The notes under the pieces are model-generated. The model was not told the origin of the DNA. It ran no database searches and worked only from the letters and a program-made list of their open reading frames with translations. Shown piece by piece: positions 12,230 to 49,509 of a DNA stretch of 64,000 nucleotides. The DNA is from Octopus vulgaris (taxonomy: Eukaryota). The first letter of the stretch is position 1. Every line of letters starts with the position of its first letter. Made by a program: the position numbers and the translations under genes. Location: contig OX597827.1 in NCBI GenBank assembly GCA_951406725.2, positions 55,800,001 to 55,864,000 on the forward strand, given 5' to 3'.

Positions 12230-12305
12230 TGGCTTCCCTGGCAGGGAATTGAACCCCAGTTTCCTGCATGACAAGCAGGGATACTTAGCACTTACTATAC
12301 TACTA
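12230..12305 (-). pseudogene. tRNA-Asp(GTC) pseudogene / retrocopy with encoded CCA
   Basis: Minus strand reads tagtatagtaagtgctaagtatccctgcttGTCatgcaggaaactggggttcaattccctgccagggaagCCA. This matches eukaryotic tRNA-Asp with CpG-decay substitutions and a degraded 5' acceptor strand. Confidence 0.8.
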
Positions 12306-12430
12306 TAAATTTTTAGCAACACTGTATGGACAGATAGATGTGAACACTTTGTTTTCATATACGATATCTTTGTGAATGGAAAAAGGGCATCTGCCAAACT
12401 GGTATCAACCCTGTGTTGAGGATTCATAAA

Positions 12431-36152: not shown

Positions 36153-36613
36153 AATATAAGAGAGTTACCGTTAAGTGGTTAACTCTAGTGCTAAAAATAG
36201 CTCCTTATTCTGGTATAGCCACCGCGTATGCAATCGATTGGACCGCATGGGTACTTGATGCTCGTGAGGGTCCAATAAATTGTACCGAAGACAAATGCTG
36301 CTGATGACTTATATGTGAGTATAATTGCATATTATATTGATAAAGAAACAATTGTTCAGCATTAATCTATCTTTTCGTTGTGTTTCATTTTCCTTACGTT
36401 GAGGGTAATGTTATTTCTTTGTGGAAATAACTTCGGTGGCTATACCAGAATAAGGAGCTATTTTTAGCACTAGAGTTAACCACTTAACGGTAACTCTCTT
36501 ATATTTATGTATAAATTTGTATTGTTTCCCTGGTTTTTATGTGCTAAGCCACTTGGTGTTAAACTGATGGTATTATTAAATTAATATCTAATTTTTCACC
36601 CTTAATTATGAAT
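36145..36613 (+). mobile_element. Hammerhead-bearing element in (TA)n with perfect 80-bp inverted duplication
   Basis: 36145-36224 is the exact reverse complement of 36434-36513. TA tracts on both flanks. Confidence 0.75.
36294..36363 (+). ncRNA. Type I hammerhead ribozyme (minimal, dimer-type stem III)
   Basis: Stem I aatgctg/cagcatt (7 bp); CTGATGA 36301-07; stem II ttat...ataa; GAAA 36345-48; palindromic CAATTG; triplet GUU (after 36356). Confidence 0.85.
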
Positions 36614-37851: not shown

Positions 37852-38907
37852 GAAACGAGTGTGTGCGTGTGTGTAATTATATACACATATGCGTATATAT
37901 GTAACATGCAGAGAAAGTGTTAAAAAGGTGTATTGGCAGAAAAGATAAGGGCTCGTCTGAAAAAAAGGGTTTTGCCAGATTAGATCAAAATGCTATGCTA
38001 TAGAAATTGTGTAAGTGGAAAAAAAAAACAAGATCTATGCTTGTCATATAATAAATAGGAAAGGGAAAAATACGATACCTAGTTAAGTCGGATTTTCTAT
38101 GGAGCAAGCTAATTTAATTATAGAAGACAGCTTGTTGGCGAAGATGTTTGTAAACTAATTTATGAAAACCAGAAGACCCTTGCGCGAAGGTTTGTAACAC
38201 AGGAAATAACACAGAAAAAGGTCGTCTATATTTTGTAGGAAAACAAAACTTTTATTGAGAAACGAAACTGCAGAAGCCTGGCCATGCTGTCGTATATAAG
38301 CATGATACCACTGAGAACTATTCCTCAATTTTCTGAACCCTAAACCACCCGAACACTACTTTTCCTGAAATCGATATGCAACTACATCTAAATAACAGAC
38401 ATTATTAATTTGGAGGGGAAACGGCTTCGTAACTAGGGAATTTTATATTTATATATGTATAGCTGTGTACGTGTGTGCGTGTGTATGTACAACAGAGAAG
38501 GCTAACTAAATTGAATGTCACCACACAATTTCGAAGTTGATAAGAAGGATGACCCTTTCACCTAAAGTTATCATGTTAGTTGTTTACAACCGAAATAACA
38601 GCAAAGACATGGATGGATTGACAAATGAGAAACAAGAGGGGTGTCTCCCTTCTTAATGAAGGTGCTACTTGTTATATTTTACATAGGCATTAATTAATGT
38701 AAAAAGCGACAATTAAGATGTAAAAGTTTAAAAGAAGTTGGCATTTAAACAGGAAATTATCCATGAGAAATAAATGAAATTGAATAGTTGTCTGAAATTA
38801 TTATTACTCGAGGAGTGATTTGTCAGAAAAGGACAAAAAGGAATTGTTTTCGAGTGGGAAGTAAAGTTTGACTTGGGTTTCAAATGCTATGACGTGAAGA
38901 AGTTTAC

Positions 38908-39089
38908 CTGAGAGTGGTGGCCAGTGGACCGTCGGCAGATTCGATTTCCGTAATAAGGTGATCGTGATGGGCTTTGATGGCTTCTTCTCGAACCAAGTCA
39001 GCATCTTTGACAGTCGTCTCACCCATTTTTTCCCATTGTTTGTATTGAAATGTTTTGGGGGGAGGTACTCCACGATCGGCAGTCGCCAT
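38908..39089 (-). CDS. First coding exon (A) of an unidentified minus-strand gene
   Basis: ATG at 39089, open to a strong donor CAG|gtaaac (phase 2). Encodes MATADRGVPPPKTFQYKQWEKMGETTVKDADLVREEAIKAHHDHLITEIESADGPLATTL(R/S). Higher GC and retained CpG, preceded by a GA-rich leader and a promoter-like region. Confidence 0.7.
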
Positions 39090-39700
39090 ACTGGCTTCAA
39101 CTCTCTCTCTATTCCCCCCTCTAGCTTTATATCTCTCTCTCTCCTTCACTCTCAACTTCCCCCCTGTATTTTTGTATCGCTCTCTCTCCCTCACTCTTGA
39201 CTGCCCCCGTCTATCTTTGTATCTCTCTCCCTCGCTCTCAACTTCCCCCTCCTACTCTGTCATTGTATTTCTCTCTCTTTCTCTCTCATTTAAGCTTTCT
39301 ATTTCTCTTCTGTTATGCTTTTGCTGCTAAGAACACATAATACACGTCTGCGCAATACTGACATCCGTCAACTAATCCCTTGTCAAAATTCAGTTTCACC
39401 TTTCTCGACCCGGAAGTACTTGTAACACGGCATCAATAACATATGTTACATTTGGATGCCCTCCACTACTTCTCTGTTTATTCTCCCGCCTCCTTAAATA
39501 TATGTATATATCATGAAAAAGCACTTTTTTAGCTTTTACATTGCCCATGATATTTGACTTTTTGGCATGAGTTATGTTTTCTTTAATTCCGCTTCCTCGT
39601 CCGCGGCTGTTAAACAAAATTGTCAAAATACTGTATGAGAAGGGTAAAGGAAACGAGGATCGTGTTACTCTTGTTAGTCATATATTTTAATTAGCTTGCG
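39090..39700. promoter_or_regulatory. CpG-retaining promoter region, possibly bidirectional
   Basis: Immediately upstream of exon A. ETS-type motif CCGGAAGT at 39410-39417, TTCCGCTTCC near 39587, CT/GA tract 39100-39310, CpGs not depleted. Confidence 0.5.
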
Positions 39701-39989
39701 AAATATTGAAATCAGTACTGTTATAAAAGGCATGGGTGATCTCAAAACCAGGAGAAGATAGTGAAAGGTAATGATATTATCACGGTAGATCGAGTTTCTC
39801 TGAGGACAGATCTGTGGATACCGTTATTCCCCCCCACCCCCTTTTTTTTTTTAAGAAAGCATATAACGTTAGGAAATATAGTATAATTCGGAAAGTGACG
39901 TGTCAATGCTTTCTGGAATTTAATTCGCAATGGGGCCAATTATTTTCAGACTTTCTTGATCTGTTAACTGGTGTTCACACAAGGATGTA

Positions 39990-40040
<51 letters not shown>

Positions 40041-40041
40041 A

Positions 40042-40196
40042 TTATATGCAGTTAAGTCCTTGTCCGGTCATAGAGTGACCAATGATTTCGCATCCATAAA
40101 GGGCCTAGTTCCATAGACAGGGCTAGCCTCTAGGCCCTTTATAGATGCGAAACCTTTGGTCACTCTATGACCGAACACAGACTTAACTGCATATAA
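40042..40196. mobile_element. Fold-back palindrome made of two 5'-truncated hammerhead halves
   Basis: Inverted arms of about 66 bp. The right arm tttatagatgcGAAAcctttggTCactctatgaccg is homologous to the 3' half of the 40536 ribozyme. Confidence 0.7.
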
Positions 40197-40395
40197 ATAC
40201 ATTACTGCTTTAGAGCGTGCTTCTTTTTTGGGAACATGATACACTGAAGAATTGTAATCTTTTCGTTCTTGGTACGGGGGATTAAAATTTTTGCTCATTA
40301 CCCCGACTTCAATTAATGTGTATCAGTGAGAATTTGTTGTTGTAGTTGTCTTCTGGCTGCTATTTTTAGCGTACCGGTGCTACCTGTACTACCTT

Positions 40396-40492
40396 GCAAC
40401 AGGACCTCCGTAATGCCATGATGGACCGTGAAGTCTGGCGTAGCATGGTAAATTCCATTGTCCCGACCACGGTCGAACAATGATGATGAATG
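40396..40492 (+). mobile_element. 97-bp 5'-truncated RTE insertion with intact TSD
   Basis: QQDLRNAMMDREVWRSMVNSIVPTTVEQ* plus (TGA)n tail, flanked by actacctt at 40388-95 and 40493-500. Confidence 0.8.
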
Positions 40493-40535
40493 ACTACCTT
40501 TAATTATTAATAATCTTATATGCCGATGACCAGTT

Positions 40536-40596
40536 GAGTCTGACGAGTCACCTATACGGCTAAGCGCTTTATAGGTGCGAAACCTAATGGTCACTC
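40536..40596 (+). ncRNA. Type I hammerhead ribozyme, canonical core
   Basis: Stem I gagt/actc; CTGACGA 40540-46; stem II g(t)cacctata/tataggtgc; GAAA 40579-82; stem III cc-taat-gg; cleavage triplet GUC (after 40592). Confidence 0.85.
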
Positions 40597-43067
40597 TGAC
40601 CGGCCATAACAATCAACTTTCCCAGTATATATGTATCTGAAAATACTTGGAAAGACTGTTTTTAAAATTATGTGCTGGAGAAACAAACATTTGCTCGACC
40701 GAATTGGCATCAATGACACGAAAATGATACTTAAATCATTTTATGTAACCATACATATCTAACTGATATAATTTAAACTTAATATATAAGGAACGTATTC
40801 AACTGAATAAATATACATTTCTTTTAATACGTTTTTTTTTTATTAATAATCGGTAGAAGTTACAGGGACTCAAGTACCGAGAATTTCATGCATTGAAAAT
40901 TCTGCTGATTATTGATAAAAAAAAAATCCTATAAATACTCATGTTTCAAGTTCTGTTTTCCTGTTGGCATCACCAAACCCATTTGTATTAATTTCTTTTT
41001 CATCTTTAGTAGTAGTAATTTAATTTTCTCCATTTCTAAATTTACCTCCCCCTACTTATGGGACAAGACCCTGAAATATTTGTTTTATTAGGTTTTATTA
41101 ATTTTTTCATTTTATTTTTTTCTTTTTCTCAAAGTTAATAAATCGTGAAGAATATTTACTTTTTATTTTTGGTGAGTGATAATCTTATTATCACCACCAT
41201 CTAACATTTGGGTACCGTCAGCGGAGCCCACCCCGTTGCAAGTTTTCACTTTCAGGTCTGAGGATCTCCTTCCGAACTGAAAAATCACCATGGGCTTTGC
41301 TCTCCCTCTGCCTCAGAGTCGAAAGAAAAATAATTAAAAAGATACTGTTATGATAAACCCTCCACGTTGTGGTTCGACCTGCTAGAAACAGCAACCAAAT
41401 CTCATCACAACCTACTATTTTAGAAAAAAAAGCAGGATGGATACATTGGATAATGTAATTTAAAAAAACCTGATTTGTTACGACTGGAACAAACCAGGTT
41501 CTTTATCGTAAGCCAGCGCAATCGTGATTAACCTGATTCTAAACAAAGTGTTTCATGACATTTGACAACTTGACTAACAATAGAACTGGTGCTTATGTAC
41601 AAATGTCTACACACAAGGCCAAGTAATGTATATACGTAAATGTAGTTCAATGAATGAAACTAATACGAAAACATCTGAAATTTTTATGGAAAAAGAAGCG
41701 GTTTAAAAGAAAAGCTTACAAACTTAATTAGGCTTCGGTTTTCATACGAACACAAACTGGTGAATTCTGAGAACGACTAAAATGATGGATGCAAAGTTCT
41801 GAATTAAAATCTTCCACTAAACTTTAGTCAGAATTTATGTTCCTAACACTAGCTTAATGATAACTAAGTTATTTTGATAAATTCTTTGTTATATTTAAAA
41901 TTAACTGAAAGAAACACAGCATCTCAACAGAAATGTTGTAACAAAAGAGCTAAGAAGAAATTAAGAATTAAAATCAAATCGTACATTGACAAATTTTGAT
42001 TTAAATGACCATCTAGTCATGAATGTATGTATATACTTTAAAAGTTCCATTTTTAATCCATCGAAAGCTTTTGCCGATCCCGTATAAATTTAACTTGTCA
42101 AATTAGTTACGATGCCTTCTCGTGTATCAAATTTAGTTTTGTGCGCACAAACATCGCCGAAGGATAAAGTAAGGAAGGTTAATAGAAATACGTCTACATC
42201 AACAAGTGCTCAAACACCCAATACAATCGATGTTATTTTGCGTCATCTGCAGTTATTTTGTCTTGAAACCACCGATGAGTCACCATCTTCTAACTCGGTT
42301 TTCAAATGACACTGCTTGACATGAAATACAGCCTAGCCGGTTTATCTAGTAAAAATAAACACCCACAATATATAAATTTGACTAACAATAACGAGAATTT
42401 TAAACCTAACATTTATAAGAATCAGTTTAGGATATTTAGGATTAAACTAAAGATGTTTCTGAATATAATGCGGTCAAACTGTGATACCAAGGGATAAAAT
42501 AGTGGGGGAGAAAAATGATTGTTATTTAGACTCAGATCAAACCGAATTCAACCTAGCTAATATCAGAGAAGTTCCAGTCGTGGCTATCACGTCTTATTTT
42601 CAGACATGGTGTATCTATGACTACATTATCCAAAGTATTCTTTTTTCAAGCTGAAAGATCTGAGTTTAGTAAGATTTTGCTGCTATTTCTGATAGATAGT
42701 GCGACCACTTTGAGTAGTGGTTCTCAACCAGTTATGGCCTGTGGATCCCTCTGATTCATATTTTACTTGGGTGGACCCTCATAGCCATTCGATGTACATA
42801 AAAAAAATTCTATTGTATTTTCATAATTAAATACTATTAGGAACTGCATAAAAATTGTTAGAATATTTTGTATATTGTAAAAGTATAACCAATTTAGTGA
42901 AGATAAATTTTAACAAAATCTTATATGAACCCCAGCTGAAATTGTTAGTTGAGAATCAAGCGGAAAAGGGTGAGACAAAAAAGGCACAGTGTATGTGTGC
43001 GCGTGCACACATACACACACGCCGATATACAAAAGTCAATAGGCATCCTCTCTATGACGGCGAGCTG

Positions 43068-47139: not shown

Positions 47140-47765
47140 ACTATGTTTTCCAGTCTGTCCTTTTAAGATGGAAAGTTCTGATTTCAGGGAAATTTGACTG
47201 CTGTATCCACCAGGTTGCATGCCTATGAGAGAATCTTCCCTTGTTGGCTCTATGAAAACTTTGTTGAGAAACTAAACAATGATAAAATATATTCTAAATC
47301 TGAAAATCCCAGTAGTATATCAGGAAATACATTATTCAATATAGCTTTATTTATTATATATTGTAATATGTGAGTGTTTTGGTTGCTATTTTCTACAGAT
47401 TGAATGGCCACTTGTTAAAAAAAAAATATGCAAATGACCAATAGTGTTCTTTTCATTTGTCCGATTTATACTTTCTTTCATATCTTTTTTCATGAGGTGA
47501 TTGAACTGCAAGCAGGCTTAGCAGTTCATTACTTCTTTGAAGTTGTTGCATTTAGATATGATCTCAGTTTTGTCTTAGGGTAGTGAGGTTTTCTTTTAGC
47601 CCAATACATACATATAAATCATCACTATAATAAGATTGCACTGTCATTGTATACATATCTTGCATTGTCAGATAATAAGTAACTCAAAACATTATTCAGC
47701 TACTCTATTAATGGTATTTAAATTAAATACAAGTTATTCCTGTGATTTTATTTGTTCATCTTCAG

Positions 47766-47850
47766 ATTAACAGCAACAGCCTACGAGCTAAAAAAGATTG
47801 ATGACAGTCTCCTCAGTGGTAGAGATTACATTATGGCCCAGCTAACCTAA
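47766..47850 (+). CDS. Probable terminal coding exon of an unidentified plus-strand gene
   Basis: Acceptor tttgttcatcttcag|, phase 2, LTATAYELKKIDDSLLSGRDYIMAQLT* followed by AATAAA at 47856-47861. Upstream exons not resolved. Confidence 0.45.
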
Positions 47851-49509
47851 CTGTAAATAAATTCACCACTAAACAATAATGCTGGTGCCTTATGAGCCAA
47901 AGAAGGCACTTCTACATGAATGCTCAAAATTCAAGAAATAGTAACCATATCTCCTTCAAATTACATGAAACCATATCCAAAAGGAAGGAAATATGATTTG
48001 TAACAGCATTTGAATATTTTATAGACTTTAGACAGACACACAAACACATTATGTTGATCTCAGCAGCATTTGAACTCGGAAAGTAAAGACGGATGAAATG
48101 CTACTAAGCATTTTGCTTGGCATGCTAATAATTCTGCCAGCATACAATAATGCAAAGAGACACAGCTAGACCAATGATGCAATTAGTTCTTCTGGGTGTT
48201 CAATTGGCTCATGTTATGTTACGCTTTGCTAAAGAAAACCAACTTTTGTTATGTAAACTATATTAAACTGAGAGATTTGACATATTGAGTTGGAAAACTT
48301 TGGTTAGCTAAGGTTATCTATGTAATTGATAGACAAAAACTTCACCTAAGAAGTGTTAAAAATCTAAAATTAGTAATTAAAGGAAATAACTTCAAAATCA
48401 ACCACTCAAATTTATGGAAGATAAAGATGTAAGAGCCAAAATGGGAATGGCTCTTACAATAGGTTAAGATTTAACAAAGTTTGGTTCACAGTAATGTCTG
48501 TAGCAAGAATCTGTTGGAATGTCTTCATTACAGACAGAATCATGTCATGCTTGAAAGAATCTCTTGTTATTATTATTTAGTCAAGGTCAGCCCTGATCCG
48601 GTATGCAAAATGATCAAAAGCATTCCACCCATGGCTGTCTTGCTTTTAAAGGGCATATGGGAGTACATTTTCTAATGCAATCTTTTGTTATTTAAGATGG
48701 TGGAATATGAGTTGAGATAGATTTAGCTGCTATTTCTAGCAAATTGAGAAACCATGTAGAGGCATCCTCCTTGATACCTCTATGTAGGTGCGATGCACTG
48801 TCAATGCTTGTGAAAATTTATGAACTGATGAATATGATATCATATAAGTTAACCCGTTAGCATTAAGATTACTTTGTCAAATGTAATGTTTATTTCTTCA
48901 CATCGATCTCTCATTGTGGAAGGGGCAGACCCAGGTAGACATGGAACAAAGTGGTGAGAAAGGATCTTCAGATGTTGGGCCTCACAGGTGGGGATGACAG
49001 GATCCTTGCATACAGGTATGTCCCCTGTATCCCTCTACAGCTGGGTATTCGTAATCTTGCAGGCTTGTAGGTGCTGGTGCAACACAAATGCACCCATGTC
49101 AGTGCTGCATAACAGTACCCAGTACACTCTGTAAAGTGGTTGGTGTTCGGAAGAGCATCCAGTCATAAAAACCAAGCCAAAATAGACATGGAGCTGGGGC
49201 AGTTCTTCAGATGGCCCACTCATGTCAAACTGTCCAACCAGCATGGAAAGCAAACATTAAATAATGATGATGATGATGATGATTGTTTTGAAATAAACAT
49301 GCATTTATTTCGTAGCTTCAAGATTTTAACGATGCGATTGTTTATTTTTTAGAACAACATTGTAAGATAGATGTGAGAGGTTGAATGTGGTCAGTTTGAA
49401 CAAAAGACAGGCAGAACTTTTTTGCCTGATGTGGCCAGTTCAAATGTGAAAGGGTTAATGTCTAAAAATAAACTTATGGGAAGTTATGCTGCAAAGTATT
49501 TATTAGTTC

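Follow-up and report, generated by a model that had tools for sequence, protein, structure and literature searches.

What might a complete hammerhead motif be doing beside a promoter in an octopus genome? The motif in question lies on the forward strand of a 64,000-nucleotide stretch of Octopus vulgaris DNA (contig OX597827.1, positions 55,800,001 to 55,864,000; hereafter "the window"), and a preliminary description had read it as a self-folding ribozyme that could cut nascent RNA. Our results point to another answer: the motif is very probably the 3' end of an old, decayed retrotransposon of the Hydra clade of Penelope-like elements and, as such, likely a neutral remnant without a host role. 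The features on which this argument draws are collected in Table 1.

Table 1. Features around the hammerhead motif (window coordinates)
Feature	Position	Strand	Remarks
CpG-rich zone	38001..42500		observed/expected 0.61-1.17 (whole window: 0.35)
Likely first coding exon of a minus-strand gene	38908..39250	-	open for 61 codons from ATG 39091; a GT donor lies immediately to the left of 38908
Separate second insertion of family A, with the inverted pair 40042-40108 / 40130-40196	40042..40240		arms 91% complementary; hammerhead represented by its 3' half only
3' end of a young, unrelated LINE, tailed by (TGA)n	40396..40492	+	many copies at 97-100%; in longer ones the sequence continues into an RT-type C-terminal frame
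Family A end piece, truncated 5', from the pseudo-LTR region of a Hydra-clade Penelope-like element	40516..40621	+	83% over 108 nt to locus L014; no RT or endonuclease left
Long helix I extension of the family, 5' arm (decayed)	40516..40535	+	6 substitutions; 24-mer occurs once with at most 2 mismatches
Type I hammerhead	40536..40596	+	helices, core and GUC; predicted cut 40592/40593
Inserted T, private to the window copy	40585..40585	+	near-palindromic 3-nt loop III of the family becomes a 4-nt loop; gap in 98% of 87 copies

Anatomy of the motif

As read from the sequence, helix I consists of four pairs (GAGT at 40536-40539 with ACTC at 40593-40596) and is followed on the plus strand by the core CTGACGA (40540-40546). 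Helix II is closed by the pair G40547-C40578, next to which T40548 is bulged; eight more pairs (40549-40556 with 40570-40577) lie beyond the bulge, and the 13-nt loop that caps the helix has room for three extra pairs, so that helix II reaches a total of 9-12. The strand then returns through GAAA (40579-40582) to helix III, which reads CC-TAAT-GG at 40583-40590 (two pairs plus A15.1-U16.1, with a 4-nt loop), and to the GUC triplet, with cleavage predicted after C40592. The type I consensus (C3-U4-G5-A6-N7-G8-A9, G12-A13-A14-A15.1 and U16.1-H17, with three helices of which helix I is open) is present throughout, and the original reading of a hammerhead with a GUC site is borne out, since all core bases and helices can be located in the sequence.

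A resemblance to the hammerhead pattern could also arise by chance, and Rfam indeed returned no hammerhead match for the motif, either at its gathering score or at E<=10. However, a strict descriptor matched once in the window as against once across 60 resampled windows, a rarity that argues that the motif is not due to chance, and the same architecture is common to the whole family described below and to its published sister. On both grounds we rejected the chance reading, whose probability is negligible. The motif is thus a genuine hammerhead ribozyme motif, its cleavage being predicted. The unconstrained fold of 40510-40616 differs from a hammerhead (z -1.26). Elsewhere in the window, a second type I hammerhead, from a different family, occupies 36295-36362, with its core at 36301-36307, a palindromic loop III and six pairs in helix I, within an element that has an inverted duplication in (TA)n; the strict descriptor missed it and, therefore, undercounts.

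The element behind the motif

A search of the species' own genome with the motif gave 756 first-look candidates, the best 40 of which, once scored, yielded at least 45 matches on 19 contigs, with identities of 80-89% if the window's match to itself is set aside. The preliminary description had recognized the motif but missed this origin as a many-copy transposon end. Some members of the family, which we call family A, share at least 500 bases of upstream sequence, in which an RT thumb and a cysteine linker can be read ahead of a GIY-YIG endonuclease. Among 29 loci picked by this upstream DNA only, 20 carry a same-sense motif downstream, placing a sense hammerhead at the 3' end, in the pseudo-LTR position, as is typical of endonuclease-bearing (EN+) Penelope-like elements. 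The longer copies L086, L088 and L076 contain an RT followed by a C-terminal GIY-YIG domain, and in the first two of them RT, linker, endonuclease and hammerhead succeed each other in one direction, interrupted by stops and frameshifts. All family A copies examined are broken. An opposite-strand partial copy adjoins the motif in 10 of the 29 other family A loci fetched, but not at the window copy; such inverted partial copies beside insertions are described for Penelope-like elements in the part of PMC8557442 used here. Partial tandems with two direct pseudo-LTRs are present in a young relative, whereas none were seen in the fetched family A loci.

The window copy belongs to this family and retains only the last 106 bases of the element. 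The window holds no remains of an RT or endonuclease, and a tblastn search of it with an intact relative found nothing below E 0.74. Pfam gave nothing useful for either the family A pieces or the intact relative; the Atlas neighbours of the latter carry GIY-YIG and RVT_1 in some of their members. In several family A loci (L035, L037, L052, L054 and L059), a long, low-complexity stretch rich in Asn, Ser and Thr separates the cysteine linker from the GIY-YIG domain; it is absent from the young family. At least two subfamilies exist, differing in loop II and in the 3' tail.

The Hydra clade is defined by N-terminal RWK and DKT motifs, a linker of the CxCx5C type, an endonuclease with CxxC and CxH around its residues E and N, terminal hammerheads and (TA)n targets (PMC8557442, in part). 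In family A, the CxCx5C linker is complete in L086 and L053, its last cysteine having decayed in the other copies, and the endonucleases of L037, L035, L046 and L052 show CxxC before E and CxH after N, with no CCHH. The RWK and DKT motifs occur in the relatives L070, L075 and L081-L084; the hammerhead-linked copies end short of that region. A Naiad assignment was rejected, as the endonuclease is C-terminal. In the supplement of PMC8557442, as far as it was available, the record of Hydra-1_Obim includes a sense hammerhead with acca-a-tggt as its helix III; this word occurs there once and is shared by family A. Locus L075, which shows 39-65% protein identity to the family A pieces, matches that record closely by eye and on this basis is this genome's form of Hydra-1_Obim. 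Judged by motifs and by identity to L075, family A would be an old sister family of the published Hydra-1_Obim, although it may already have been named elsewhere. Both have an RT, a CxCx5C-type linker, a GIY-YIG domain with CxxC and CxH around E and N, and a sense 3' hammerhead, and copies of both end beside (TA)n-type tracts. Family A differs in the long low-complexity linker-to-GIY-YIG stretch, the core CTGACGA, a bulged, longer helix II and a long helix I extension. The genome also contains a young, intact Hydra family (loci L081-L084, e.g. L083:1899-4049:- and L082 4449-4520) with a 717-residue frame and partial tandem and inverted copies, whose hammerhead is of its own type, with a palindromic helix III and, in each of the ten copies seen, a C at the U4 position.

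The family A motif also resembles the minimal metazoan Penelope hammerheads, which, in the part of PMC4209133 considered, are type I, combine a long helix II with a short helix I, have G10.1-C11.1, an additional nucleotide where helix II begins and a small palindromic helix III, and mostly occur as scattered single copies. The bulge follows G10.1 here and precedes it there, and in the window copy the palindrome is lost through the inserted T. This same T gives the window copy a helix III of two pairs and a four-base cap, as in HHR_Amex2 and invertebrate retrozymes; however, unlike the non-LTR retrozymes, with their type I hammerheads of canonical form, covered in PMC7229834 (in part), it lacks tandem 200-400 bp units, the 6-pair/4-pair geometry and any sign of amplification. 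The motif is single, and the neighbouring family A insertion has no 5' core half, so that the tandem hammerhead units characteristic of retrozymes are absent.

Decay, helix III and predicted folding

Among 87 distinct near-full copies (window included), the core is kept in 21, and core plus all three helices in four, the window copy being one; the other three of 86 are equally canonical. For 22 copies, the loci had been selected through endonuclease DNA or RT protein (the motif search had matched three of them as well); here, non-CpG sites of the core differ at 26 of 194 positions, other non-CpG sites at 129 of 1281 and CpG sites at 103 of 262. No covariation was detected in an alignment of the window copy with 45 of the 55 copies that have the 5' arm, ten having been dropped for indels or heavy decay: 82% of its cells pair in the family structure, and its score of 0.146 compares with 0.147 after shuffling, 281 of 500 shuffles being as high. 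Given the lack of covariation and a core kept no better than the rest, family A copies appear to decay neutrally from a master sequence, with no sign of selection. In this alignment (A1), the preferred consensus pairing of the family joins columns 57-64 with 71-79, i.e. the 3' strand of helix II with helix III, which would block the active fold. Columns 2-20 with 88-101 form helix I as a long rod of four pairs, a 3x2 internal loop and then seven and six pairs, which extends close to the ends of the copies.

Within 40530-40610, the window copy is closer to the majority letters than any other of the 87 copies (it differs at 3 of 80 sites, against a median of 12.5%, and at 1 of 68 non-CpG sites), and its changes are concentrated outside the core. 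Over 40516-40611 it carries eight substitutions, tied third to sixth of 57. The low divergence of the core region would look like the pattern expected under selection, but this copy was chosen for being canonical and served as the search query. Its outer helix I is less well preserved. The extension originally proposed, gtt/gac plus gccg/cggc, does pair in a constrained fold, but in a private register on a decayed arm: majority letters form 6 of 7 and 6 of 6 pairs in the two family segments, the window copy 4 of 7 and 4 of 6. Nor are its CpGs fully intact, as had been stated. Four of the five family CpGs in 40530-40610 are kept, but the fifth reads CA at 40549-40550; further upstream, 40527-40528 reads TG, where C and G are the commonest family letters. 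At least four of five CpGs are kept in 28 of 59 copies in CpG-rich loci as opposed to 1 of 28 in CpG-poor loci, a locus figure that counts the copy's own few CpGs. CpG retention in the window copy may thus be attributed to its CpG-rich surroundings.

The inserted T is found in the window copy alone. Exact genome matches number 49 for the family-type helix III and one, the window itself, for the window form. The insertion is predicted to stabilize helix III by about 2 kcal/mol (-1.5 as compared with +0.4 kcal/mol without it) and to weaken the self-dimer (predicted energy from -8.2 to -4.8). In models that leave out tertiary contacts and Mg2+, the predicted share of the active fold is 3% for the motif alone and 0.2-0.3% with flanks, as against 0.16% and 0.004%, respectively, without the T; the gap to the active fold, 2-4 kcal/mol, is smallest for the window copy among the 21 core-intact copies folded. 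In the part of PMC7229834 consulted for this purpose, HHR_Amex2 from axolotl, with a two-pair, four-base helix III, was cut to 22% in an hour as a monomer, a loop contact also being present. By analogy, monomer folding of the window copy is reasonable. The claim of a real stem III that allows the motif to act as a monomer therefore holds in part: the size of the stem would permit some monomer cleavage, but the stem is owed to a private T and the active fold is predicted at 0.2-3%. In contrast, the suggested loop I-loop II tertiary contact finds no support, because the canonical contact geometry, as given in the part of PMC4209133 cited, combines a 6-pair helix I with a 4-pair helix II, whereas helix II has 9-12 pairs here instead of the four required for fast type I cleavage.

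Promoter setting and possible roles

The motif lies about 1.3-1.4 kb from the expressed first exon, on the divergent side of the promoter and outside the minus-strand transcript. In three of four putative RNA runs, contigs end their match at 38908 and continue elsewhere, and 39269-39735 is covered in all four at low depth and without strand information; the RNA labels of these runs are guesses, and contigs cannot reveal RNA ends. Since the contigs end at a minus-strand GT donor below the 61-codon frame, the promoter zone would drive a minus-strand gene. The 61-codon exon (38908-39091) has no match in Pfam, Atlas or a large protein search. The proposed promoter at 39.1-39.7 kb is supported, but the one spliced transcript observed from it runs on the minus strand, directed away from the motif, rather than in the sense of a plus-strand gene. 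Cleavage by the motif of pre-mRNA from a plus-strand gene that would end at 47850 is unsupported: spliced promoter contigs are minus-strand, and no plus-strand splice joint occurs among the contig matches listed. The plus-strand gene itself is putative and unproven. Its presumed 27-residue last-exon peptide matched nothing in PDB or Pfam, no convincing chain of exons emerged from a simple scan for splice sites, and 47659-48053 is covered in three runs by low-depth, unstranded contigs, one of them unspliced across 47766. RNA-type coverage of the hammerhead bin is largely repeat-derived, and its uncovered parts prove nothing. In three DNA-type runs (organisms A, C and D), contigs join the 3' end of the motif to its unique flank with 2-4 differing letters in 780-900, too close for a test of conservation. 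Among openly readable papers, we found no test of a cephalopod hammerhead.

Several other insertions surround the motif. The LINE end directly 5' of it, which we take to be RTE-like, is flanked by an 8-bp target duplication (40388-40395 / 40493-40500). The second family A insertion adjoins a (TG)n(TA)n tract at 39976-40042, and its arms share private letters, indicating one insertion event or conversion between the arms. A dimer of the motif with the half motif at 40146-40165 is possible on paper, but that half sits inside a 67-pair inverted repeat. A small inverted repeat with 33-base arms and poly(T)/poly(A) ends lies at 40832-40926 (a few copies, judged by DNA depth), and a weak tRNA match just above the Rfam threshold at 12234-12309 on the minus strand is probably a tRNA-derived repeat.

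These data are compatible with a simple history. The ancestor may have had a weak, palindromic helix III and a tandem precursor RNA that was cut as a dimer, as the literature suggests (PMC4209133, in part). Reverse transcription, which in such elements would have started at the 3' end, may have stopped early, leaving only the 106-base end. The copy probably landed in a CpG-rich, presumably unmethylated promoter flank, where it would have escaped most CpG decay, and a chance T insertion may have stabilized its helix III afterwards. If the plus strand is read, either by divergent transcription or by read-through, C40592 could be cleaved slowly and incidentally, also in a divergent transcript, but such cleavage would be limited by the predicted rarity of the active fold and the missing tertiary contact.

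A stricter form of this explanation holds that the motif is intact but effectively inactive and never cuts, with competing pairings and short helices prevailing. The free fold is indeed not a hammerhead, helix III prefers the 3' strand of helix II as its partner in the family alignment, and single minimal Penelope motifs remained uncut in vitro, dimers being cut weakly, in the experiments covered by the cited part of PMC4209133. However, no more than 2-4 kcal/mol separate the motif from its active fold in the models, and a motif with a helix III of the same size was cut as a monomer, to the extent noted above for HHR_Amex2 (PMC7229834, in part), which makes complete inactivity improbable. Conversely, the host may have kept a copy capable of monomer cleavage for cutting plus-strand RNA, divergent or read-through, that originates at the 39 kb promoter, or an intron in a plus-strand gene. 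At its first step, this exaptation would have turned a dimer-dependent hammerhead into a stand-alone one through the one-base insertion in loop III and a re-registered helix I, with the host keeping it to cut upstream antisense or read-through RNA. The lowest core-region divergence of the 87 copies, the best predicted active fold, the proximity to the expressed first exon and a helix III that resembles invertebrate monomer-active motifs (PMC7229834, in part) would fit such a role. Set against these points are the ascertainment of the window copy, the three other copies that are equally canonical, the contextual explanation of CpG retention, the decayed 5' arm of helix I, a helix II too long for the known contact and a spliced transcript seen on the opposite strand, and we consider either version of a host role unlikely, if slightly less so than complete inactivity. 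It is about as improbable as the latter that the motif is a unit of a still-mobile non-autonomous element (a retrozyme or miniature Penelope), transcribed, cut and copied by an active relative. The intact young Hydra family could supply the machinery, and retrozymes have been proposed to derive from Penelope ends (10.64898/2026.07.22.740005, in part). Yet the window copy is single, without a tandem, the hammerhead of the young family differs, and the private letters of the window copy occur nowhere else in the genome, which implies that it has left no detectable daughters. This reading is thus largely refuted.

We therefore return to the retrotransposon remnant. Hammerhead motifs of such elements are scattered by the thousand through animal genomes; the window motif is likely an ordinary new copy of a known kind of element, and as a remnant it has little significance. 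Its value is that of a one-letter experiment of nature on the way in which helix III governs the choice between dimer and monomer cleavage. If the motif were conserved and active in cells, it would represent a rare transposon ribozyme taken over for the control of promoter-side transcripts.
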